A stretch of 64,000 nucleotides of DNA from Callorhinchus milii (taxonomy: Eukaryota): assembly GCF_018977255.1 (NCBI RefSeq), contig NW_024704742.1, positions 19,222,001-19,286,000 of the forward strand, read 5' to 3'. The translations under genes were made by a program, and so were the position numbers. The first letter of the stretch is position 1. Each line of letters begins with the position of its first letter. Below are positions 2,993 through 63,395 of this stretch, one piece after another. Under the pieces are notes generated by a model. The model was not told the origin of the DNA. It did not search any database and was given only the letters and a program-made list of their open reading frames with translations.

Positions 2993-3308
2993 GGAGTCCT
3001 GTAGCTCAGTGGTTAGAGCACTCGCTTTGCAAGCGAGAGACCTGAGTTCAATTCCCAGCAGAGGGCGAAACCTTGGGCAAGTTTCCTTACTCCACACAGA
3101 GCCTAATAATAATCCCTCCAAAAAACAATAATAAATTGGTCATTTTCAATCTACAACTGTTTGTGGGACATTGCTGTGCGCAATTGGCTGCCGCGTTCGC
3201 CCACAAATATACAGTCAATTCACTTTACAGTGTGTTCTGTGAAGCGCTTTGGGACGTCCTCCTGACGTGAAAAGCGCTATATCAAATGCAAGGATTATTA
3301 TTATTATT
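2993..3308 (+). mobile_element. Young tRNA-Ala-derived DeuSINE, full length, short form
   Basis: GGAGTCCTGTAGCTCAGTGGTTAGAGCACTCGCTTTGCAAGCGAG head with Pol III A/B boxes, Deu-like core (CTGTTTGTGGGACATTGCTGTGCGCAATTGGCTGCCG), L2-like tail and (TTA)n. Near-identical to about nine other copies in the window. Confidence 0.93.
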
Positions 3309-18692: not shown

Positions 18693-19009
18693 ATAATAAT
18701 AATAATCCTTGCATTTGATATAGCGCTTTTCACATCGGGAGGACGTCCCAAAGTGCTTCACAGAACACACTGTAAAATGAATTGACTGTATATTTGTGGC
18801 CGAATGCGGCAGCCAATTGCGCACAGCAATGTCCCACAAACAGTCGTAGATTGAAAATGACCAATTTATTATTGTTTTGGGTTTTGGAGGGATTATTATT
18901 AGGCGTGTGGAGTAAGGAAACTTGCCCAAGGTTTCGCCCTCTGCCTGGAATTGAACTCAGGTCTCTCGCTTGCAAAGCGAGTGCTCTAACCACTGAGCTA
19001 CAGGACTCC
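18693..19009 (-). mobile_element. Young tRNA-Ala DeuSINE nested in an older + strand copy (18584-18692 and ~19020-19245)
   Basis: Full reverse-complement copy. The host SINE resumes after it; CATCT is duplicated at the junctions. Confidence 0.93.
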
Positions 19010-20827: not shown

Positions 20828-21636
20828 CTGCAAATGTACATAAATAGCTGAACTTGCATTTGATGCAGTGCCATACATCTCAAAGTGTTTCAGACAATTA
20901 ATTGCTTTTTATTTGTAGAATGTAGGCAACGTGACAGCTGATCTGCTGCAGCAAAATGCAGCAATGAGAGGAATAACTAAATTGAATCTGCTTTTGATAA
21001 ATTTGGTTAAGGGAGGCCAGGACACATGGAGCTCTCTGTTACTATTACTGTGCTCTCTGTAATAGTGCCACAGAGTCTTCAGAGTCCACCTGACAGACAG
21101 ATAGAATCTCACAATGTTTTCTTATTCAAACTCCCTGCATTCTGTACTTGAGTGTCAGCCTGGAACACAACATCAAGTCCACGGTGTGGGGGCTCAGACT
21201 GACAACTTTCTGATCCAGAGGTGAGTGTGCTACCAACTGAGCCAAACTGTCACACACATATTACTCTGCCAATCGAGGCTAGGAATACATTTCCTGAATA
21301 TACAATTGAAATCGCATCATATCGCAGAGATGTGAATTCATGCATCACATATCACTTTTTAATCTCCTTAACTAGAACTATTAGAACCATTGAACAGGGC
21401 ACATTCATAACATCCTTTAACAGACAAGATCACAAAGCCCTAATTCCTGTGTTGAGTATTAGACACATTTGTGATATATGACCACCACTACTTGTATATG
21501 CAATGTTAAAGGCAGTCATAGCAATCACAATGTCATGAACATCAAGTCATTTTAAGGTCACTGGTTTCTTTTCCAGGATGTTGAAGTGACGACTTTTGCG
21601 TCTTCGGAAGTCAAAATTTCAGTCAGATTTAAGATT

Positions 21637-21947
21637 ATAATAATAATAATCCTTGCATTTGATATAGCACTTTTCACGTCGGGAGGACGTCCCAAAGCGC
21701 TTCACAGAACACACTGTAAAGTGAATTGACTTTGTGGGCGAACGCGGCAGCCAATTGCGCACAGCAATGTCCCACAAACAGTCGTATATTGAAAATGACC
21801 AATTTTTATTATTGTTTTTGGTTTTGGAGGGATTATTATTAGGCGTGTGGAGTAAGCAAACTTGCCCAGGGGTTCGCCCTGTCTGGAATTGAACTCAGGT
21901 CTCTCGCTTGCAAAGCGAGTGCTCTAACCACTGAGCTACAGGACTCC
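21637..21947 (-). mobile_element. Young tRNA-Ala DeuSINE
   Basis: Full copy; AAGATTA on both flanks (21631-21637, 21951-21957). Confidence 0.93.
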
Positions 21948-29030: not shown

Positions 29031-29351
29031 TAATAATAATAATAATCCTTGCATTTGATATAGCGCTTTTTCATGTCGGGAGGACGTCCCAAAGCGCTTC
29101 ACAGAACACACTGTAAAGTGAATTGACTGTGTATTTTGTGGGCGAACGCGGCAGCCAATTGCGCACAGCAATATCCCACAAGCAGTCGTAGATTGAAAAT
29201 GACCAATTTATTATTGTTTTTGTTTTTTTGGAGGGATTATTATTAGGCGTGTGGAGTAAGGAAACTTACCCAAGGTTTCGCCCTGCCTGGAATTGATCTC
29301 AGGTCTCTCACTTGCAAAGCGAGTGCTCTAACCACTAAGTTACAGGACTCC
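29031..29351 (-). mobile_element. Young tRNA-Ala DeuSINE inserted in L2
   Basis: Full copy; L2 sequence on both sides. Confidence 0.93.
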
Positions 29352-29807: not shown

Positions 29808-30134
29808 TAATAATAATAATAATAATCCTTGCATTTGATATAGCGCTTTTCACATCGGGAGGACGTCCCAAAGCGCTTCACAGAACCCACTGGAAAGTGA
29901 ATTGACTGTGTATTTTGTGGGCGAACGCGGCAGCCAATTGCGCACAGCAATATCCCACAAACAGTCGTAGATTGAAAATGACCAATTTTTATTATTGTTT
30001 TTGGTTTTGGAGGGATTATTATTAGGCGTGTGGAGTAAGGAAACTTGCCTAAGGTTTCGCCCTGCCTGGAATTGAACTCGGGTCTCTCGCTTGCTTGCAA
30101 AGCGAGTGCTCTAACCACTGAGCTACAGGACTCC
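29808..30134 (-). mobile_element. Young tRNA-Ala DeuSINE inserted in L2
   Basis: Full copy; L2 ORF2 resumes at ~30159. Confidence 0.93.
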
Positions 30135-43639: not shown

Positions 43640-44550
43640 CAATAACAACAACAAAATTACATTTATAGGGCGCCTTTCCCGTCGGGAGGACATCCCAAAA
43701 CCGCTGAACAGTCAGATGTTGGGGCCCGAGCATGGGGGAGGGCCGAGGTAGGGGTGAGGGAAGGCAGAGAGGTGGGAGGGCGACTGAAGTCAGGATCGAA
43801 GAGAAAGTTCTTGAGACCGGCCTTGAAGGAGGCAAGGGAGGAAGCGAGGAGAAGGGACCATGGGATGGAGTTCCAGAGTGTGGGGGCAGAGAGGGTGAAA
43901 GCCCGGCCACCGATGGTAGGACGAGTCGGGCGGGAGACATGGAGCAGACCAGAGCCCGCTGAACGGAAGGAGTGGGCAGGTTGGTAGGGAGTCAGCAGGT
44001 CAGAGAGGGTATGAGGGGGCAAGGCCATGGATGGCCTTGAAAGTGAGAATGAGGATCATGGAGTCCTGTAGCTCAGTGGTTAGAGCACTCGCTTTGCAAG
44101 TGAGAATCTGAGTTCAATTCCAGGCAGGGCGAAACCTTGGGCAAGTTTCCTTACTCCACATACCTAATAATAATCCCTCCAAAAAAACAAAACAATAATA
44201 AATTAGTCATATTCAATCCATGACTGTTTGTGGGACATTGCTGTGTGCAATTGGCTGCCGTGTTCGCCCACAAATATACAGTCAATTCACTTCACAGTAT
44301 ATTCTGTGAAGCGCTTTGGGACGTCTAGAAATGTGAAAAGCGCTATATCAAATGCAAGGATTATTATTATTATTATTATTAAACTCGATCCTCTGGGGGA
44401 TGGGAAGCCAATGGAGTCGGGCGAGGGTGGGAGTGATGGGGTCACGGAGCCTGGTGCGTGAGAGTACACGAGCTGCAGAGTTTTGGAGATCTGCAGCTTG
44501 TGAAGGGAAGAGTTGGGAAGGCCAATGAGGAGGGAGTTCCCGTTAGTCGA
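43640..44550 (-). mobile_element. L2 LINE 3' fragment
   Basis: GGRAFTLSAPTLWNSIP...FKAGLKNFLF and tail. Confidence 0.9.
44060..44381 (+). mobile_element. tRNA-Ala DeuSINE inserted in a - strand L2
   Basis: Full copy splitting L2 ...GAGGATC / AACTCGATCC... Confidence 0.92.
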
Positions 44551-46118: not shown

Positions 46119-46446
46119 ATAATAATAATAATAATAATAATCCTTGCATTTGATATAGCGCTTTTCACGTCGGGAGGACGTCCCAAAGCGCTTCACAGAA
46201 CACACTGCAAAGTGAATTGACTGTATATTTGTGGGCGAACGCGGCAGCCAATTGCGCACAGCAATGTCCCACAAACAGTCGTAGATTGAAAATGACCAAT
46301 TTATTATTGTTTTGGGTTTTTGGAGGGATTACTATTAGGCTCTGTGTGGAGTAAGGAAACTTGCCCAAGGTTTCGCCCTGCCTGGAATTGAACTCAGGTC
46401 TCTCGCTTGCAAAGCGAATGCTCTAACCACTGAGCTACAGGACTCC
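46119..46446 (-). mobile_element. Young tRNA-Ala DeuSINE
   Basis: Full copy; flanks AGGAGTAT / AGGACTAT. Confidence 0.93.
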
Positions 46447-46753: not shown

Positions 46754-47078
46754 GGAGTCCTGTAGCTCAGTGGTTAGAGCACTCGCTTTGCAAGCGAGAG
46801 ACCTGAGTTCAATTCCAGGCAGAGGGCGAAACCTTGGGCAAGTTTCCTTACTCCACACAGAGCCTAATAATAATCCCTCCAAAACCAAAACCAATAATAA
46901 AATTGGCATTTTCAATCTACGACTGTTTGTGGGACATTGCTGTGCGCAATTGGCTGCCGCGTTCGCCCACAAATTTACAGTCAATTCACTTTACAGTGTG
47001 TTCTGTGAAGCGCTTTGGGACGTCCTTCCGACGTGAAAAGCGCTATATCAAATGCAAGGATTATTATTATTATTATTA
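46754..47078 (+). mobile_element. Young tRNA-Ala DeuSINE inserted in an old SacSINE1-like element
   Basis: Full copy, inverted relative to 46119-46446. Confidence 0.93.
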
Positions 47079-49940: not shown

Positions 49941-50959
49941 ATTATTAATTTGACACTGGTCTAAAATTGTACAGGGAGAGTGTCATTTAAATCTTAAGTA
50001 ATTGCAGTGTGAGCTATTGAAAAGATTGGTGTATTTGCAGGGCAGACTGTAGAAGGTCATGAGTGACCTGGTAACTTACAAACCTTTTAATTCCTTAACA
50101 CCCATTACAGTATGGCATGTAATGTAATTCCATATATCAATATTTTGGGAACAAGGACTTAATGTTACTGTCCAATATTCTAATGACAGGTCTGATCCAA
50201 TGATTCCTGATGGTACAAACAACAATATGGCAAATTTCATGTAGAAGGACATCTCAAAGCATTTCACAGAGCTGGCTGGGAGGTTGAGCTGGGGGTGGAG
50301 GTGGGGTGGTAGGGGGAAAGACATGGTCAAAAAGATGGACTTTAAAGTTGAGGAGGGAGGTGATGAGGTGGAGGGACTCCAGGATGGAGTTCCAGAGAGC
50401 AGAGGTAGAATGGCTAGAAACTTGCTCCCCAAGGATGAGGCAAGTCAAGAGGGAGGCATGAAGCAAACCATTGTTGATAAGCAGAGGATGCAGCCGTGGT
50501 TACAGGAGATTGCAGAGATATAGAGAGGAAAGGTTTGTACACTAGAACAAGGATATTGAATTTGATCTGCTGGAGAAACAGTATCCCTTTAAGCAGGGAT
50601 ATTTTACAGGCTATAAACTGAAACATATTATGTAACATCAACATAGGACAATATAGCTAGAATTGCATTATAATAGTGCAATCTAAGCAGTCAACAGATC
50701 AATATTAACTCTCAAATGTGTTCCTGTTTATATTGTCTGAAGCCTTTCATTCCAGTTGTTCTGGGTCTCAGATCCACTCAGCCTTTCCTTTCCAAATCTC
50801 AGAACCTAGTATCGGAATATTATTGCGTTAAAGTAAAATGCAGGTTGATCCAAAAATTGCAACTAACGATGCATCCTCACAAAATTAATTCAAAAAGTAT
50901 TCAACATTGAAAACTCCCAAAACGAAAAACATGAGGAGGTTTTCAAAAACAACTGAATA

Positions 50960-51045
50960 TTGATTAAACTCAATTTTAAGGAGTTCATTATCAAGTATAC
51001 ATTGCAATTGAGATTAGTCACAGTGAGATTCCTATAAATAGCTAG
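50960..51045 (+). promoter_or_regulatory. Putative HESX1 core promoter (TATA box plus homeodomain ATTA sites)
   Basis: TATAAATA at 51033-51040, ~95 bp before ATG 51135. Upstream GATTA/CATTA motifs include AGATTA (TAATCT on the - strand, Otx/bicoid-type). Confidence 0.55.
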
Positions 51046-51134
51046 GGCACGACTGAGGGCACTGGAAAATTAAAGCTATTAGAACAGCCAGTCTATGTAT
51101 TATTGTTAAACTGTATTAATGCCCAAAGCTCAAC

Positions 51135-51548
51135 ATGTTCTTCACTTAGCTTCAACGCCTATTGCTTTCATCAACCTGTGACCCTCTACCTGTCCTGAGG
51201 GGTCAGACAGTGTGTGCCAAGCTGTGCCCTGGGGCAGACTGGCTCAGTCACCCACACAACTGTAGCTGGTACCGAGGGCGGAGAGCCAGGACTGTGTTCA
51301 GCAGGAGCCAGATTGAAGTATTGGAGGAAGCATTTCGTCGGAATTGTTACCCAGGGATAGATGCTCGTGAACAACTTGCTCACAAGTTGACTCTTGATGA
51401 AGACAGAATTCAGATCTGGTTCCAGAATCGTCGAGCAAAGCAGAAAAGATCTCACCATGAATCTCAGTTTCTGATTGTGAAAAACGCACTGATGTCCGGT
51501 TCAATTGTACCCAAACAGGAGGAGAAACATGAACATCAAAGCATCTAA
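51135..51548 (+). CDS. HESX1: HESX1/Anf paired-like homeobox coding region; intronless homeodomain; 5' end disrupted or spliced
   Basis: Translation [73 protein letters not shown] matches the diagnostic HESX1/Anf homeodomain and flanks ([26 protein letters not shown], RSHxESQFL). Frame is open from 51150 to TAA at 51546-51548. In-frame ATG at 51135 is followed by TAG at 51147-51149. The ORF-track start at 51162 is a TTG. Family identity is high confidence; functional status is uncertain. Confidence 0.9.
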
Positions 51549-51560
51549 AACTGGATCATG

Positions 51561-51888
51561 GGAGTCCTGTAGCTCAGTGGTTAGAGCACTCGCTTTGCAA
51601 GCGAGAGCCCTGAGTTCAATTCCAGGCAGAGGGCGAAACCTTGGGCAAGTTTCCTTACTCCACACCGAGCCTAATAATAATCCCTCCAAAACCAAAAACA
51701 ATAATAAAAATTGGTCATTTTCAATCTACGACTGTTTGTGGGACATTGCTGTGCGCAATTGGCTGCCGCGTTCGCCCACAAATATACAGTCAATTCACTT
51801 TACAGTGTGTTCTGTGAAGCGCTTTGGGACGTCCTCCCGATGTGAAAAGTGCTATATCAAATGCAAGGATTATTATTATTATTATTAT
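51561..51888 (+). mobile_element. Young tRNA-Ala DeuSINE 12 bp after the HESX1 stop codon
   Basis: Full copy; ATCA on both flanks. Confidence 0.93.
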
Positions 51889-52043
51889 CAAAGCAGCTCT
51901 GGGGAACAGCAGGGGAAGCTCATCTAGGTTGAATGATGATCTCAAGATCTCCACGCCCAATCTCAGTCTAGAGGCAATATGTTATCAGCTGTGGCTTCAT
52001 ATTACAATTAGATATGGGACTTACACAAGTAAAGCAGACTTAC

Positions 52044-52629: not shown

Positions 52630-54575
52630 AAGGGAATGTTAAAGGGATTGGGTGTGTTCATGTCCTTCAATCCAACATATACTGCAAAAAGATTATACGA
52701 AAAAAGGTTAGTGGGTAACATTAAAGGGAATTCTAAAATACTTTACAAACATATCAAGAAAAAAAGATTAGTCAAAGGTAGGATGGGGCCAATTAAGGAC
52801 CAAGGCGGAAATCTTATTGTGGAGGCAGAGGCTTGTGGAGGCTGATCTACTGAATGCGTACTTTGCATCTGTCTTCACAAAAGAAGTGGATGCACCAAAT
52901 GCCGCAGTAAGGGAGGAGAGGGTAGAGGAAATGGATAGGATAAATATAAACAGAGAGGAAGTGCTGAAAAGGTTGACTGGGCTGAAGGTAGATAAGTCAC
53001 CCGGTCCGGACGGGATGCAGCCAAGGGTACTATGGGAGGCAAGGATACAAATAGCGGAGGCTTTGGCTACAATTTTTCAATCTTCGTTGGACACAGGAGT
53101 GGTGTCAGAGGACTGGAGAGTGGCCAATGTGACTCCCCTGTACAAAAAGGGACAGAAGGACAAACCTGGGAACTACAGGCCAGTCAGCCTAACATCACTA
53201 GTGGGGAAACTTCTGGAGACTATAATCCAGGACAGAATAAATCTTCACTTAGAAGAATATGGGTTAATTAGGGACAGCCAACACGGATTTGTTAAAGGCA
53301 AATGTTGTCCAACAAATCTAATAGAATTTTTCGATGTGGTTACGGAGAGGGTGGATAAAGGTTGTAGTTGATGTAGTTTATATGGACTTTCAAAAGGCAT
53401 TTGACAAAGTGCCACATGAAAGACTTGTAAGAAAGATAGAAGCCCATGGTATAAAAGGGACAGTGGCAGCATGGATCCAGGACTGGCTGGGAGACAGAAA
53501 GCAGAGAGTTGTGGTGAACGACTGCTTTTCTGTCTGGAGGGAAGTGTGCAGTGGTGTCCCCCAGGGATCGGTATTAGCACCACTGCTCTTCTTAATATAC
53601 ATAAATGATCTGGACTTGGGTATAGCAAGCACCATTTCCAAGTTTGCGGACGACACAAAGTTAGGTAGGGTGATAAACAGTGAGAAGGATAGCAGCCAAC
53701 TGCAGGAAGACATAGACAGAATGGTAAAATGCGCAGACACGTGGAAGATGAATTTCAATGTGGAGAAATGCGAGGTAATGCATTTTGGTAGAAAGAATGA
53801 GGGGAGGCAATATAGACTAGGTAATACAATCTTAAGGGAGTGAAAGAACAGAGAGACCTGGGGGTTCAGGTAAATGAATCCTTGAAGGTGGCAGGACAGG
53901 TAGATAAAGCTGGAAGAAGGGCATATGGGATACTAGGCTTTATAAATAGGGGCACAGAGTACAAGAGTCAGGAGGTTATGATTAACCTGTATAAAACACT
54001 GGTTAGGCCTCAGTTAGAATATTGTGCACAGTTCTGGGCACCACACTATAGGAAGGATGTTAAGGCATTGGTAAGGGTGCAGAGGAGATTTACAAGAATG
54101 ATACCAGGAATGAGGGACCTTGATTATGAGGAAAGGCTAGAGAGGCTGGGATTATTCTCATTGGAGCAGAGAAGGTTACGAGGAGACCTAATAGAGATCT
54201 TCAAAATCATGAGGGGATTTGATAGGTTAGAAAGGGAAAAACTGTTTCCACTGGTGGGTGTGTCGGTGACTCAAGGTCACAGATTTAAAATAGTCTCTAA
54301 AAGAAGCAGAGGGGGGGGTGAGAAGAAATTTCTTCATGCAGCGAGTTGTTCGAATCTGGAATGCATTGCCTGAAAGGCTGGTGGATGCCGTTTCGATAAC
54401 TACTTTAAAAACGCGGTGGATGGGTATTTGAGGAGGATGGGTTTGCAGGGTTATGGGGAAAGGGCTGCAGAGTGGGATTGATGTCACATTGCTCTTTTCA
54501 AAGAGCCGGCACAGACTCGATGGGCCGAATAACCTCTTTTTGTGCTGTACGATTCTATGGTTCTATAATTCTATG
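52630..54575 (+). mobile_element. CR1 LINE, 5'-truncated, near-intact RT with a few frameshifts
   Basis: KSPGPDG, NYRPVSLTS, QHGF, YMDFQKAFDKVPH, SGVPQGSVL, KFADD, RDLGV, LEQRRLRGDLI; TTCTATG-repeat tail. Confidence 0.96.
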
Positions 54576-56489
54576 ATACTGCTGACCATGATTTTTCAAA
54601 GAACTTACATTGCTTTGTCTTAGATGAAAAGGTACTTTTGATTTCTCCCCAATGTGTTCAAACCATATGTTTCTCAGCTTAATGGTCCTTTGTGCCAAAC
54701 GTTATACCACAGAAAAACTGTTATTTAAAATTGGAATTTGCTTCTTGCTTTGCAATAGTATTATCCCAAAGCACAACACTTAACTGAAGCTTTAATTAAA
54801 GGTTATTCCTCTCAGTAACTAAGTGTGACTGTGTGCAGATGGGACGATGGATAAGAAACAATAGACAGGTTCATATGGCTAATTGGAAGTCACTGAGTAG
54901 CTGTTTCCCAGTCACTCTAGTCTAAGTGTTCAAAAGCCACTCAACAGGCAATTTATAGTGTGAAATTTCTATTTCTGAGGAAGCAAAGTTCCTAAAGATA
55001 TCCCGAGGGAGGTTACTATTTCTAAAATGCCGCACTGAAACTAAAACAAACACAAGGCACCGCAAAATGAAAAAGTGCTAATATAGTAAAAGGGGGAAGA
55101 AATTTATATTTCATACCTTTCCTTGACAAGATAGGAAGGCTGCTGCCTCTCACAAATGTGTGCATATTTAATAATGTGTAAACTTTCCTGAGGCTCTGTG
55201 TGCTTCAGCAAGTTTTATCATTGCATTGTTTGGTACAATTTGTGTTCTTGCCGCCACTGGCACTGTGCCAGGTGCTCTCTGATATGACCTACTGCAACAC
55301 CATCTAAATCTGCTTCTATTCTTACAATGCTATTCTTAAAGCAAATACTAAGCCACTTTTTTAAAGGAGATGTGAATGCAGTGATGGGAGGAACATAGGG
55401 TGTATATTCTGGGAGGGATTCTCTCAATGACATTGGTTTTATCATTGCCCCATCCCACATTCCCTTTCCACTGCCAGCTTGTGTGCCCAGCTAGAAGTGT
55501 TAAATGGATTGAAATGAACTTCTGATGTGAAAGGCATTGATAAATGCAAATTATATTGCATCATATAATCACACATTATATCATAAACAGTGTGATTGAA
55601 AAGTGGTGAAACACCAAAGTCATGATGTTACTAACACTTCGCCGCAGAGAAAGCACCCTGTGCCACAAACGCATGGGAGCCTCCTGAACATCATACTGGC
55701 TAGCGATACCTTAGTACGTTGAGATTTCAGGTTGAAGCCTCTGTTTCTACTGTATGTTCAATGGCAAATTGTTGCAGAAATACAGCAGCTTTCCCACCAA
55801 ACTTGCAATGCAAATACAACATTGTAAACCGATCACATTTCCCTAAGAACCGTTTAAGCCCTAAGAACGCATCAACTCAGATTTCACCCTTGTAACTCAC
55901 TCAGTATTCATAGGCAATTTTATCATTGAAACTCCTCATGTGTGAAGAGATTTGAACTAAGAGTTGGAACCAGGAACCTGCAGTTTCCACCCAGCACTTT
56001 TCATGTTATGGTTCAGTTTCCAAGCAACACAAATGTCAAGAATACTGAAATCACACTACTGCACTGGCACCTTGTGTTATAATCGGGATTCTCAGAACTT
56101 GTTCACATGCTGTAGTACAGTAGGAGGAAAAATACAGATCAAATCAAATTAATTAGAGTATATCCCCTGCCAGTTAATGAAGTCTTTGCATAGGGTCTGC
56201 TGCAAACGTATTTAGCCATATTTGATTCGGGACTGTCAGCTAAACTATTTGGTTAGTAAGGGTGAAAATGGTAGATTAAATTTACCTATTTGATATTTAT
56301 TGCTATTCCCTTAATAGTAACATTTGTTTATAAGGAAAATATATCAGAGGGAGACATTTATCATAAGCTTAGACATTACAAGCAACAGCAATTGAACTAA
56401 TGATATATCTGATTGCATGAGTCCACCAGTTATCCAGTATTTCATTATGCACTAACAGTGCACTGTATATGAACAATAACTACAGCATC

Positions 56490-58005
56490 ATGCAATTATA
56501 TAGCCCCCTCCCGCCACCCCCCACCACCCCCCTGCAGGGTAGAATCTCAGAGCGCTTAACAGTGCCGGAGCCTGACTTCGAGCTGGGGCATTGGGGAGTG
56601 AGGAGGTCGAAGAGGTAGGAAGATGCCAGGGAGTGAATGGATTTGAACATGAGTTTAAAGATCTTGAAGTTGATCCGTTTGGTGATGGGGAGCCAGTGGA
56701 GCCTGGCCAGAACAGGTGAGATGTGGGTATGGAGTTTGGTCCAGGTCAGTATGCGGGCGGCAGAGTTCTGATTGAGCTGGATCTTTTGAATGGTGGAGCT
56801 GGGGAGACCGGCGAGGAGTACATTGGAGCAATCCAAGTGGGATGTGACAAACTGATGCATGAGGGTTGCGGCTGCGTTTGGGGTAAGGTACGGTCGGAGG
56901 CAGGCAATGTGGCGGAGATGGAAGAAGGCAGGAATGTGGGGGAGAAAGGACAACTGGGAGTCAAACCGGATGCCTAGGTTGCGCATTGGTTTGGTGAGTC
57001 TGAGGGAGAGTCCAGGGAGGTTGAGGAGTTTAGTTCCGTAGGAGTGAAGACGTTGATGGGAGCCAAGAAGTATGGTTTCTGTCTTGTCCATATTTAGCTG
57101 CAGTACGTTTACACTCATCCAGGTCTTGATGTCTGCCAGACAAGCTGATAGAACATCGGTGGACCTGGAGTTGGTACTGGAGGAGGCAAAGTAGATTTGT
57201 GTGTCATCTGCATACATGTGGAAGTTTGTTCCCTGTCTGTGGATGGCATTGCCCAGAGGGAGCATATAGCTAAGAAAAAGAAGAGGCCAAGGATGGAGCC
57301 CCGCGGTGACCGGGTGGGGGCGGGAGGAGAAATGATTCGCTGAGAAGAAATGGAGGCGATTGGTTACGTAGGACTCGAACCATGTGAGTGCAGTCCCAAT
57401 GAGGTAGATGAGGAAGGTGAGCCGATGGAGGAGGATGGCGTGGTTGACTGTATCAAACGCGGCAGAGAGATCCAGAAAACGAGCAGGCAGAGGGAGCCCT
57501 GGTCACAGATAGAGAGGATGTTGTTTGTGACTTTGACAAGTGCTGTTTCTGTGCTGTGGCCAGGGCAAAAACCATACTGCAGGGGCTCGAGGAGAGGAGA
57601 GATGTAACCGAAGTTGACCTGCAACAATGCGTTCCAGGACTTTGGCAAGGAAGCGTAGGTTGGAGATGGGTCGGTAGTATGTGAGATTAGAGGGATCGAG
57701 GGTGGGTTTTTTGAGGAAGGGTGTGGTGACAGCGTTTTTAGGTGGAGTGGAACAGAGCCTGAGGAGAGAGACTGGTTGACCATGTCGGCCAGCAAGAAGG
57801 AGAGGGGGGGGAGTTGAGTGACCAGCAACTGGGTGGGGAGTGGGTCGAGGGAGCAGGTGGTGAACTTCATCCGGGTGATTGTGGTTGAGTGGGAGGGAGA
57901 AATGGGGGCAAAGGAGTGTAAGGAGGGGGGAATGGCAGGAGCCGTGGTGGAGGGAGATGGCGGTGTGGATGGTCTGGGTGGGGTGGAAGGGGACATGGGG
58001 AGGTG
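56490..58005 (-). mobile_element. L2 LINE RT region
   Basis: TTCSLDP, QYGFCPGHSTETALVKVTN, FHMYADDTQIY, LHWLP. Confidence 0.92.
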
Positions 58006-59715: not shown

Positions 59716-60043
59716 TAATAATAATAATAATAATAATAATCCTTGCATTTGATATAGCGCTTTTCACGTCGGGAGGACGTCCCAAAGCGCTTCACAGAAC
59801 ACACTGTAAAGTGAATTGACTGTATATTTGTGGGCGAACGCGGCAGCCAATTGCGCACAGCAATGTCCCACAAACAGTCGTGGATTGAAAATGACCAATT
59901 TATTATTGTTTTTGGTTTTGGAGGGATTATTATTAGGCTCTGTGTGGAGTAAGGAAACTTGCCCAAGGTTTCGCCCTGCCTGGAATTGAACTCAGGTCTC
60001 TAGCTTGCAAAGCGAGTGCTCAACCACTGAGCTACAGGACTCC
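59716..60043 (-). mobile_element. Young tRNA-Ala DeuSINE
   Basis: Full reverse-complement copy. Confidence 0.93.
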
Positions 60044-60426
60044 ACGAGTCCGGTTCCTGAGGCAGGCAAGTCCACAGCACTCCAGCTAACTTAGCTCAAC
60101 GGTTGGATTTGGCAGGGTAAAACACTAGGGTCGGGGATTCCCACTCCGCTCCTGTTAATCCTACAAGCTAAAGCCTTAAATGGGTAGCGTGTGCTAACAA
60201 GATAAGCAATGGGAAGCTTACGAGGCTTTGCTTTCAATGGCAAGCAATGCATTTTTGCAGTTTGCAGCAGTACCCCCATTGTACCCATTTTGGGGTCCCC
60301 AACCCTTGGCCCTGGCCAACCTGCACCTCATACACTTCGAATTTAGTTAAGCAAAGGCATCCCTTCAAGAAGAGAGTATGGATTGCATTCCAGACAAAAG
60401 GTTTTTCATTATCTAGGTGGCATACA

Positions 60427-60690: not shown

Positions 60691-63395
60691 AGTGTCTGAG
60701 CTGGAATCCGTGGTGCAGACATTGCGCAGCATCAGGACAGTGAGTGCTTCCTGATAGTTTCATCCTGGAGCCAGTCACTCCCCTGAGGCTCAGGGAATGT
60801 ATAGATAATAGTATCAGTCAAGGACAGGATAGGGTGTCTGACAGGCAGGAGGTTAAGGGAACATCAGAGAGAGTGGTAGTGAAGCCTCAGGCTTTAACCT
60901 TGGCCAACAGGTACGAGATCCTTGCAACCTGTGTGGACAAGGAAGCTTGTGAAGAGGAAGGAAAATGTGATTCCAATATTAGGGGAAACAAACAGAAAGT
61001 TGTAGTGATTGGGGACGAGACTATCAGGCGGACAGATACACTTATCTGAGGCCACAACCTGGAGACCCGAAGGCTCTGTTGCCTTCCTGGGGCCGGGGTG
61101 AAGGACGTCTGGGCGGGGCTGGAGGAAAATCTGAAACATGAGGGCAAGGATCCATTGGTGGTGCTTCACATAGATACCAATGACATAGGTAGGGTTAGTT
61201 GTGATGATTTGAGGAGGGAGTTCAAGGAGCTGGGAACTAAATTAAAACAAAGAACATCAAAGGTAGTGATATCAGGATTGCTGCCTTTGACATGTGCAAA
61301 TTGGTACAGGAATAAGCAAATTTGAGAGTTGAATGCATGGCTGAAGGAGTGGTGCGGAACGCAGGGGTTTCATTTTATGGGCCATTGGCACCAGTATTGG
61401 GGGTCTATTTCAAAAAGATGGGCTCCACTTAAAGCAGGCTGGGACAAATGTCCTAGCAAACCGAATACATAGGGAGGTAAATAAAGCTTTAAACTGGTAA
61501 AGGCGAGGGGGGATACAATTAGAAATAATCGCAAGCCAGCAGTTTTGAGAAAACTAAAGGTAGCAGAACAGAATAGCGAGAGAGGTAAGAAGCTCAGTAA
61601 AGAAGATAGGGCATCAGAGAGTAGGAAATGGTAAGGAATTAAAATCGCTATATCTGAATGCACGAAGCATTCGGAATAAGATAGATGAATTAAAGGCACA
61701 GATAGATACAAATAGGTATGATCTAGTAGCCATTACTGAGACATGGTTACAGGGAGATCTAGGGTGGGAGTTAAATATTCCGGGGTTTTCAGTTTATAGG
61801 AAGGATAGACAATGTGGAAAACGAGGTGGGGGGGTGGTAGCCTTGTTAATAAAGGATAGAATAAAAACAGTAGAGAGGAAAGATTTCAAATCAGATAACC
61901 AGGATGTAGAGACGGTATGGGTAGAATTACAAAATACAAGGGGCAGAAAACATTAGTGGGAGCAGTTTATAGACCCCCAAAAGTGAGCAGTATGCTGAGG
62001 AACCAACTAGGAGACAGGCCATCCTAGACTTTGTTTTGTGTAACGATATTAAGGCTACTCTAGGGCAGTGTGATCATAACACAATAGAGTTTAGTACTAA
62101 GTTAGAGAGCGATGTAATCAAATCCGAAGCAAGGGTCTTAAATTTAAATAAAGCTAACTTTGCAGGTATGAAGGAGGAATTAGCTAAAATAGACTGGGAA
62201 ATTAGATTAATGGATATGACAATAGACCAACAGTGGCAAACGTTTAAAGATGTAGTGCAAAATTCTCAGCGGTCACATATTCCCTTGAGGAATAAGAGTA
62301 CCACAGGGAAAGCAGTTCATCCGTGGCTAACTAGAGCAGTTAGAGAAAGTATAAAACTAAAAGAAATGGCCTATAAAACTGCCAAAAAGAGTAGCAAATC
62401 TGAGGACTGGGAGTGTTTTAGGGATCAACAAAGGAAAACCAAAAAGCTCATGAAGAGTGACAAAATGGATTATGAGGGCAAGCTAGCTAGGAACATTAAG
62501 ACAAATTGTAAGATTTTTTATAAATACATTGAAAGGAATAGGCTAGCAAAAGTAAATGTGGGTCCATTACAGACAGAGACAGGAGAAATTATAATGGGGG
62601 ATAAGGATTTGGCAGAGTCCCTAAATAAATACTTTGCTTTTGTCTTCACGTTAGAAGACACAAGAAGTTTACCAGAAATAGAGATGCACCAAGGGGCTAA
62701 TGATAGGGAGCAACTTAGGGAAATTTACATTAACAAAGAATTGGTGCTAGGGAAATTGTTGGCATTAAAAAGTGACAAGTCCCCTGGACCTGATGGTCTG
62801 CATCCTAGGGTTTTAAAAGAGGTAGCTCATGAGATAATGGAGGCCTTGTGACTGATCTTCCAAAATTCTTTGGATTCTGGAACAGTTCCCATTGATTGGA
62901 AGATTGCAATCGTAGATTCATTAGGTTTGTACCAGGGATGAGGGGATGAGTTATGAGGATAGGTTGAGCAATTTAGGCCTATATTCTCTAGAATATAGAA
63001 GAATGAGAGGTGATCTTATAGAAACCTATAAGATTATAAAGGGGCACGACAGAACAGACAATGGGAGACTTTTTTCCCCTGTTTGGAGAAACTATAACCA
63101 GGGGTCACAATCTTAAAATTAGGGGTAAGCCCTTTCGTATTGAGTTGAGGAAAAACTTCTTCACTCAGAGGGTAGTGAATTTATGGAATTCTCTACCCCA
63201 AAGGGCTGTAGATGCTCAGTCCTTGAACATATTCAAGACTGAGATTGATAGATTTCTTGTGGATAAGGGATTCAGGGATATGGGGATAAGGCAGGTAAGT
63301 GGAGTTAGAATAGATCAGCCACGATCTTATTGAATGGCGGGGCAGGCTAGAGGGGCCGAATGGCCTACTCCTGCACTTATTTCTTATGTTCTTAT
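60690..63395 (+). mobile_element. CR1 LINE with ORF1 (SGNH esterase-like) and endonuclease; RT core deleted
   Basis: LANRYEIL, VVVIGDE, CLPGA, VVLHIDTND (ORF1); YLNARSIRNK, AITETWL (APE); KSPGPDG, then a jump at ~62910 to the C-terminus; TTCTTATG tail. Confidence 0.92.

Follow-up and report, generated by a model that had tools for sequence, protein, structure and literature searches.

Introduction

Anf genes known to date carry three introns, two of which lie in the homeobox, with the last at or after homeodomain position 46/47 (Bayramov et al., 2016, PMC5180219). Canonical Anf/HESX1 genes encode a homeodomain near the C-terminus, WYRGRR and ESQFL motifs, and an engrailed-type (eh1/EnR) repressor motif in exon 1, and they keep conserved neighbours. 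Processed pseudogenes, as outlined in PMC5470649, have lost their introns exactly and have an intron-bearing parent at another place; they show absence of the parental promoter, 5′ truncation, insertion at unrelated sites, and a poly(A) tail; tailless retropseudogenes are nevertheless on record in therians (PMC5322556).

The LINEs called "stringent", eel UnaL2 and CR1 among them, depend on recognition of a particular 3′ tail, which limits the cellular RNAs that they copy (PMC3747384, PMC5470649), and stringent systems are thought to make few processed gene copies (PMC5470649, PMC3747384). In the stringent LINE/SINE pairs described from eel (UnaL2/UnaSINE1, PMC3747384) and from Callorhinchus milii (CmiSINEs/L2-2_CM, PMC5499810), the template is a free Pol III transcript. 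The CmiSINEs have an Ala-tRNA head and a CORE body, and their 3′ end, which is common to SacSINE1-CM, is 78.6% similar to the tail of the LINE L2-2_CM (Luchetti et al., 2017, PMC5499810). For the L1 system, a statistical link has been published between a SINE in the 3′UTR (Alu or B1) and the formation of processed copies, especially from lowly expressed genes (Farre et al., 2016, PMC5199112).

Here we describe a HESX1-like homeobox in a 64,000-nt stretch of the C. milii genome, hereafter the window, which a first-pass annotation made from the letters alone had read as an intron-less HESX1/Anf gene. Only in its 3′ end does the window copy depart from a processed pseudogene.

An Anf-type homeobox frame without introns

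An open frame at window positions 51150–51548 (+), 132 codons from stop to stop, holds a full homeodomain, with a Pfam PF00046 match (E = 1.6e-23) that covers profile positions 1–57 of 57 at ORF residues 44–100. Taking W48 as the anchor, the 60 residues of the Anf/HESX1 homeodomain run uninterrupted at 51276–51455 (+). The first-pass annotation had proposed a homeobox lacking both conserved homeobox introns, and the frame, the Pfam match and the two strings that it quoted bear this out. AGC CAG/ATT GAA (the slash marks an exon junction of the parent, described below) is contiguous at 51306–51317, across the exon 2/3 junction between 51311 and 51312, which corresponds to homeodomain 12/13. AGA ATT CAG/ATC TGG is contiguous at 51405–51419, across the exon 3/4 junction between 51413 and 51414, which corresponds to homeodomain 46/47. 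The key residues W48, F49, Q50, N51 and R53, which had been listed as intact, are all kept in the window frame.

The top protein match of the frame is "homeobox expressed in ES cells 1 [Callorhinchus milii]" (P0002, 185 aa), with 99% identity over 93% of the query, and the next are HESX1/ANF proteins of sharks, rays, amphibians, reptiles and birds. Among the best 120 of 328 matches (E ≤ 1e-5), those with a descriptive name are almost all HESX1/ANF. The frame keeps an Anf-type homeodomain near its C-terminus together with the flanking WYRGRR and ESQFL motifs, as canonical Anf/HESX1 genes do, but unlike the genes described in PMC5180219 it is without the three introns, the exon 1 repressor motif and the conserved neighbours. 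There is no in-frame ATG 5′ of the homeodomain in the window frame; the first methionine comes after it, in NALMSGS. The start of the frame (51150–51174, +), which follows a stop TAG at 51147–51149, is derived from the flank.

The native HESX1 gene lies on another contig

We searched the genome (991.5 Mb, 1762 contigs) with the 93 C-terminal residues. Five HESX1-like places were found: the window, a contiguous copy at C1:37.76M, a C-terminal fragment on contig C5, and two pieces on contig C12 that lie ~120 bp apart. Using tblastn of P0002, we located four HESX1 exons on C12 (~C12:20,009,7xx–20,011,5xx, minus strand). All three introns have GT-AG ends, the junctions include ...SRSQ/IEV... and ...DRIQ/IWFQ..., and the joined exons translate to P0002 exactly. 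The homeobox introns sit at homeodomain 12/13 and 46/47. The first-pass annotation had placed the introns of mammalian HESX1 at Q/IEV and RIQ/IWFQ, where they are indeed seen in the C12 gene, and the second, intron-bearing HESX1 for which it had advised a search is this gene, with introns exactly at both homeobox positions named. DNA of exon 1, which bears the start codon and an FTIDSLLG repressor-type motif, is found on C12 only (one match in the genome). The C12 HESX1 of C. milii is an entirely canonical four-exon gene. A UniProt model of C. milii HESX1 (P0003, 125 aa) has a different N- and C-terminus and the parental V at homeodomain position 30; it probably represents the C12 gene in an alternative or erroneous version.

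The neighbours IL17RD and APPL1 had been suggested as a synteny check on the window as the native locus. A Pfam SEFIR search of the genome returned five matches, two of them adjacent at C12:19,980,798–19,981,579, ~28 kb from HESX1; the ORF there (321 aa) is 100% identical to C. milii interleukin-17 receptor D, which is encoded on that contig, and is the last exon of IL17RD. On the other side of HESX1, at a distance of ~9 kb, lies one of the 21 genome matches to BAR_3 (C12:20,020,775–20,020,933). The best matches of this exon of 53 residues, at 94–98% identity, are all APPL1 (DCC-interacting protein 13-alpha), and the third listed (94%) carries the species name C. milii. The same SEFIR search gave no match anywhere on contig C1, which bears the window, and the closest BAR_3 match on C1 is ~3.4 Mb off. 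In human 3p14, the order is IL17RD-HESX1-APPL1. Because IL17RD and APPL1 flank the C12 gene and are absent at the window, C12 is the native HESX1 locus, and the synteny check speaks against the window.

Structure of the window copy

Window positions 51175–51886 align with positions 238–946 of the spliced C12 mRNA in one block of 98.0% identity (712 columns, 11 mismatches, two gap openings). This single alignment shows the exact loss of introns relative to an intron-bearing parent elsewhere, and it confirms the cDNA-mediated event that had been suspected from the letters. All parts of the copy are on the plus strand. The last 137 nt of the 161-nt exon 2 come first (51175–51311; 100% identity over 137 nt to C12 exon 2), followed by exon 3 (51312–51413), which is joined to exons 2 and 4 without an intron and has two differences from the parent, and by the coding part of exon 4 (51414–51548, stop TAA at 51546–51548), which has none. 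The exon junctions are crossed without a base lost. A 3′UTR spacer of 12 nt separates the stop from a SINE, as in the parent (51549–51560; one difference, at 51552). The tRNA-Ala-headed SINE, recognised by ARAGORN and by homology to the parent, was copied in sense as HESX1 3′UTR (51561–51886, 326 nt), and its (ATT)6 tail (51869–51886), within which homology to the parent stops, is the end of the retrocopy.

At the 5′ side, the truncation point lies 24 nt inside exon 2 (mRNA position 238). The copy is without exon 1 and without the first 24 nt of exon 2, and it matches P0002 only from residue 63. The 525-bp upstream flank is single-copy in the genome and unlike the parent's upstream region. At the 3′ side, the parent sequence beyond the SINE is absent. 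No poly(A) follows the window copy; (ATT)6 is followed by ATCAAAGC. A candidate 5-bp target-site duplication, ATCAA, abuts the 5′ end of the copy (51170–51174, +) and the tail (51887–51891, +). It is the longest word common to both flanks; it is short, and the parent too has ATC after its SINE tail.

In its exact intron removal, its intron-bearing parent elsewhere, its lack of the parental promoter, its 5′ truncation and its unrelated site, the window copy is like the processed pseudogenes of PMC5470649. Unlike them, it has no poly(A) and ends in the microsatellite tail of a SINE, with the real mRNA end of the parent uncopied. Window 51175–51886(9) is a 5′-truncated, promoter-less processed copy of HESX1 and not a case of intron loss in place.

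The first-pass annotation had favoured the opposite reading, in which both homeobox introns were lost in situ at a native, promoter-bearing HESX1 locus, over a bare retrocopy, citing an upstream TATA motif. The motif itself is real (TATAAA at 51033–51038, ~140 nt upstream), but it carries no promoter weight: with 84 occurrences of TATAAA on the two strands of the 64-kb window, one near the copy is uninformative. Against this reading stand the intron-bearing C12 gene with its IL17RD/APPL1 synteny, the absence of exon 1 and of those neighbours from the window, and the single-copy flank, and we regard in situ loss as refuted, with next to no probability left to it. The 84 TATAAA compare with 49 expected from shuffles, and none of 100 shuffles reaches 84; the excess is probably a property of AT-rich repeats.

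The SINE embedded in the HESX1 3′UTR

ARAGORN places a tRNA-Ala (tgc) at 51564–51634, which is the head of the SINE. The same SINE is present in sense in the C12 parent, 12 nt after the stop codon, with four (ATT) units at its tail vs. six in the window copy. More than ten other copies in the window have the common GGAGTCC head and the end GCTATATCAAATGCAAGG(ATT)n, and they are 90.7–96.9% identical to the HESX1-embedded one. Near-full-length copies, of which there are at least nine further in the 64 kb, lie at 2993–3307, 18693–19009, 21634–21947, 29033–29351, 29809–30134, 44053–44377, 46124–46446, 46754–47077 and 59723–60055. Many older tail fragments are also present. The tRNA-Ala SINE of the window is a young, very dense family. 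The HESX1-embedded element fits the description given for CmiSINEs in PMC5499810. A hairpin is predicted at 51818–51853, before the (ATT)n repeat (z = −1.44; 18 of 200 shuffles fold as well). The HESX1 SINE also contains AATAAA, and many HESX1 transcripts may therefore end inside it.

The window has 29 ORFs of at least 130 aa, and we scanned 22 of these with Pfam, the seven left out being the HESX1 frame and six that overlap it, each other or SINE copies. Four of the 22 matched, all to LINE domains (RVT_1 in three ORFs, Exo_endo_phos in one), and none of the 22 gave a host exon. These LINE fragments lie at 52772–54370 (+), 56483–57502 (−) and 61564–61953 (+). Since none of them ends in an (ATT)n tail, they are probably not the SINE's partner.

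We also considered the idea that free SINEs derive from the HESX1-embedded copy as a master and are tagged with 8–12 nt of HESX1 3′UTR. It was prompted by two window copies (44053–44377 and 60055–59723) whose heads are preceded by GGATCAT-like letters. Pattern searches for such tags, allowing up to two mismatches, gave 7 and 212 matches. Upon inspection of 37 SINE-head upstream flanks, likeness beyond (G)ATCATG was found only in the parent and the four HESX1 copies described in the next section. The other matches owe their likeness to the search pattern itself, and chance would give roughly as many among tens of thousands of SINE heads, so we rejected the idea. Genome-wide, 212 SINE heads are preceded by a sequence with at most two mismatches from CGGATCATG, with CGCATCATG and CAGATCGTG as recurring forms; they may be coincidental, given how numerous the copies are, or may mark a subfamily whose 5′ end is longer.

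Sibling copies of the same mRNA

We searched at the DNA level with exon 4 minus its SINE and found five places: the parent, the window and three others. The three siblings match the spliced mRNA at positions 280–946 (C1:37.76M, 97.9% identity), 464–945 (C5:4.69M, 97.3%) and 547–946 (C1:135.71M, 96.3%). The C5:4.69M copy starts 13 nt 5′ of the exon 3/4 junction, which it crosses without an intron. The 5′ ends of the four copies thus fall at mRNA 238, 280, 464 and 547, and their flanks are unrelated on both sides. All four end in the (ATT)n tail of the SINE, with n from 5 to at least 9 vs. four in the parent, and none of the four is followed by poly(A). The target-site duplications of the other three copies are 4 bp or nothing clear. 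ATC follows the (ATT)n run in three of the four copies and in the parent; this may reflect a target preference, or priming a few bases downstream.

We read the four copies as separate retroposition events from one mRNA species, each apparently begun at the tail of the embedded SINE. One retroposition, with the four copies then arising by duplication at the DNA level, would account for the 5–7 differences from the parent's SINE that the copies have in common, but these are explained equally well by a later change at the parent or by a different parental allele. The 5′ ends, the flanks on both sides and the tail lengths all differ among the copies, and we consider duplication very unlikely.

The parent's SINE differs at 5–7 places where the retrocopies agree, including two indels and CpG transitions; all three other copies agree at ~4 of these places and two of the three at the rest. 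In the parent's coding sequence there is no position where the retrocopies agree against it. Parent-side differences of this kind are as expected if the 3′UTR SINE drifts while the CDS is constrained. Seven of the window's 11 SINE differences are common to the C1:37.76M and C5 copies, and being common to all three copies they lie with the parent, as changes or as another allele; ~7 differences in the 712 columns are the window's own. The C5:4.69M and C1:135.71M copies have in common the loss of one base at the head of the SINE and a C>A substitution, both absent from the parent and the other two copies, which suggests a common template that differed from the reference parental allele.

The HESX1 copies are like the products of stringent LINE/SINE pairs (UnaL2/UnaSINE1, PMC3747384; CmiSINEs/L2-2_CM, PMC5499810) in that they end in a common tail with a variable simple repeat, and also in their variable 5′ ends and their lack of an A-tail; target duplications are short or absent in those pairs, and short or unclear in the HESX1 copies. 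Unlike in those pairs, a spliced Pol II mRNA that carried a SINE served as template, and not a free Pol III transcript, and for this reason coding exons were carried along upstream of the SINE head.

A proposed route through the SINE tail

The window copy is probably a young dead processed pseudogene of HESX1, made by an L2-type LINE that primed on the embedded SINE tail. A stringent LINE could copy HESX1 mRNA because the SINE in the 3′UTR supplies the tail that such an enzyme requires. In the proposed sequence of events, a tail-recognising reverse transcriptase would bind the SINE tail inside a read-through HESX1 mRNA, presumably in the germline or the early embryo; the gene takes its name from expression in ES cells. 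Target-primed reverse transcription would start at the (AUU)n repeat on a nicked target, and the enzyme would continue beyond the SINE head, copy into the spliced coding exons and detach at variable points. The frame in the window would still be open only because the copy is young. The partner LINE would be L2-2_CM, an assignment taken from PMC5499810 only.

A Pol III transcript of the SINE cannot explain the copies, because they include spliced exons from 1.1–1.6 kb farther upstream in the gene. A switch of template to a free SINE RNA is improbable, since the order of stop, spacer and SINE is the parent's own genomic arrangement. The spliced, 5′-truncated and promoter-less form of the copies is also typical of L1-type retroposition, and an ordinary poly(A)-dependent (L1-like) processed pseudogene could have lost its A-tail, or have been made from an mRNA ending at the SINE; three A's do stand after ATC in the window copy. 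However, the same (ATT)n tail is the end point of all four independent copies, its number of repeats varies and no A-run follows, and at 96–98% identity they are young enough that a tail should still show. (ATT)n is, moreover, the normal end of more than ten free SINE copies in the window. We therefore consider L1-like retroposition unlikely and prefer priming on the SINE tail. That a single gene has given rise to four copies would follow from the position of this tail in the HESX1 3′UTR.

Sequence change and transcription

Over 123 codons, the window copy and the parent have two differences, one non-synonymous and one synonymous. At 51364, C vs. the parent's T gives V125A at homeodomain position 30, where each of the 10 HESX1 proteins displayed has V or I; at 51395, T vs. 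the parent's C is silent. A third difference (51552, T vs. the parent's C) falls at a CpG in the 12-nt spacer. Summed over the four copies, there are six non-synonymous changes and one synonymous change over ~714 N and ~186 S sites, which is what neutrality predicts, at low power. For the neutrality check advised in the first-pass annotation, one N and one S change in 123 codons are compatible with neutral evolution, and are too few for a verdict on the window copy alone.

We aligned contigs from four public runs to the window. X5, X7 and X10 are RNA by guess, and X1 is DNA-like. A contig of X1 bridges the 5′ junction (50400–51246) without differences, so the insertion is real DNA. Contigs of X7 and X10 are spliced and agree with the parent at 51364 and 51395; upstream, they continue for 264 and 205 letters, respectively, that are unlike the window, and the one of X7 extends beyond the coding part into the head of the SINE, as far as 51601. 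These contigs fit spliced parental mRNA containing the SINE. A contig of X5 (51194–51561, depth 4.8) has the window's letters at 51364 and 51395 and the parent's at 51552; it may be a transcript of the window copy or an allele of the parent, the library type being a guess. X1 shows parental letters only at 51364, 51395 and 51552, and these letters may therefore be polymorphic, perhaps private to the assembled individual. None of X5, X7 and X10 has a contig over the 5′ flank next to the junction. Depth is 0 in all bins of 50400–51155 for X5 and X10, and for X7 in all but one (11.1 at 50832–50885).

Without a start codon, the N-terminal repressor exon and the parental promoter, the window copy most likely makes no HESX1 protein. 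It could still be a functional, or at least expressed, retrogene, transcribed from a local or host promoter and giving a homeodomain-only protein without the N-terminal repressor motif; splicing into the AG at 51148–51149, or initiation at a codon other than ATG, would be examples of how. The frame of 132 codons is open with all key homeodomain residues intact, a possible acceptor (cacttag/CTT) stands at the frame start, and at 51364 and 51395 the X5 contig agrees with the window. Yet that contig has the parent's letter at 51552, no contig of the three RNA-like runs covers the 5′ flank at the junction, no in-frame ATG precedes the homeodomain, exon 1 is absent, and V125A alters a conserved position. 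The siblings point the same way: the C1:37.76M copy has three replacements and no silent change, and the progressively shorter C5 and C1:135.71M copies cannot encode a homeodomain protein. We judge a retrogene to be quite improbable, and that the window copy is dead is far more likely than that it is alive.

Discussion

In the literature, mostly that outside subscription journals, we found no description of spliced-mRNA copies that end at an embedded SINE tail in an L2 system, and no HESX1 copies described for cartilaginous fish. A related precedent is the association reported by Farre et al. (2016, PMC5199112). Unlike in that association, the HESX1 copies physically end at the tail of the embedded SINE, the system is a tail-specific L2 one, and there are four staggered events.

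A broader reading can be put forward tentatively, as a possibility that we hold to be less likely than its opposite: 3′UTR SINE tails may be a regular route to spliced-mRNA copies in an L2-dominated genome, with HESX1 as a serial example and the window copy possibly transcribed. A stringent LINE that is expected to ignore ordinary mRNAs may then be recruited by an embedded tail, and the coding exons would be a "5′ transduction".

For the evolution of HESX1/Anf, a false lead is removed: in chimaeras the ancestral gene of four exons persists, with its two homeobox introns and in the order IL17RD-HESX1-APPL1. At 98% identity to the real gene, the window copy can mislead HESX1 gene counts, primer design and read mapping in C. 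milii. The copies would represent a clean natural case of a stringent LINE system yielding processed gene copies. If the route is general, it would explain a source of retrocopies in L1-poor vertebrate genomes, and annotators should call retrocopies without demanding poly(A) tails. The result is modest for HESX1, where the original finding is explained away, and of some interest for the biology of retrocopies.
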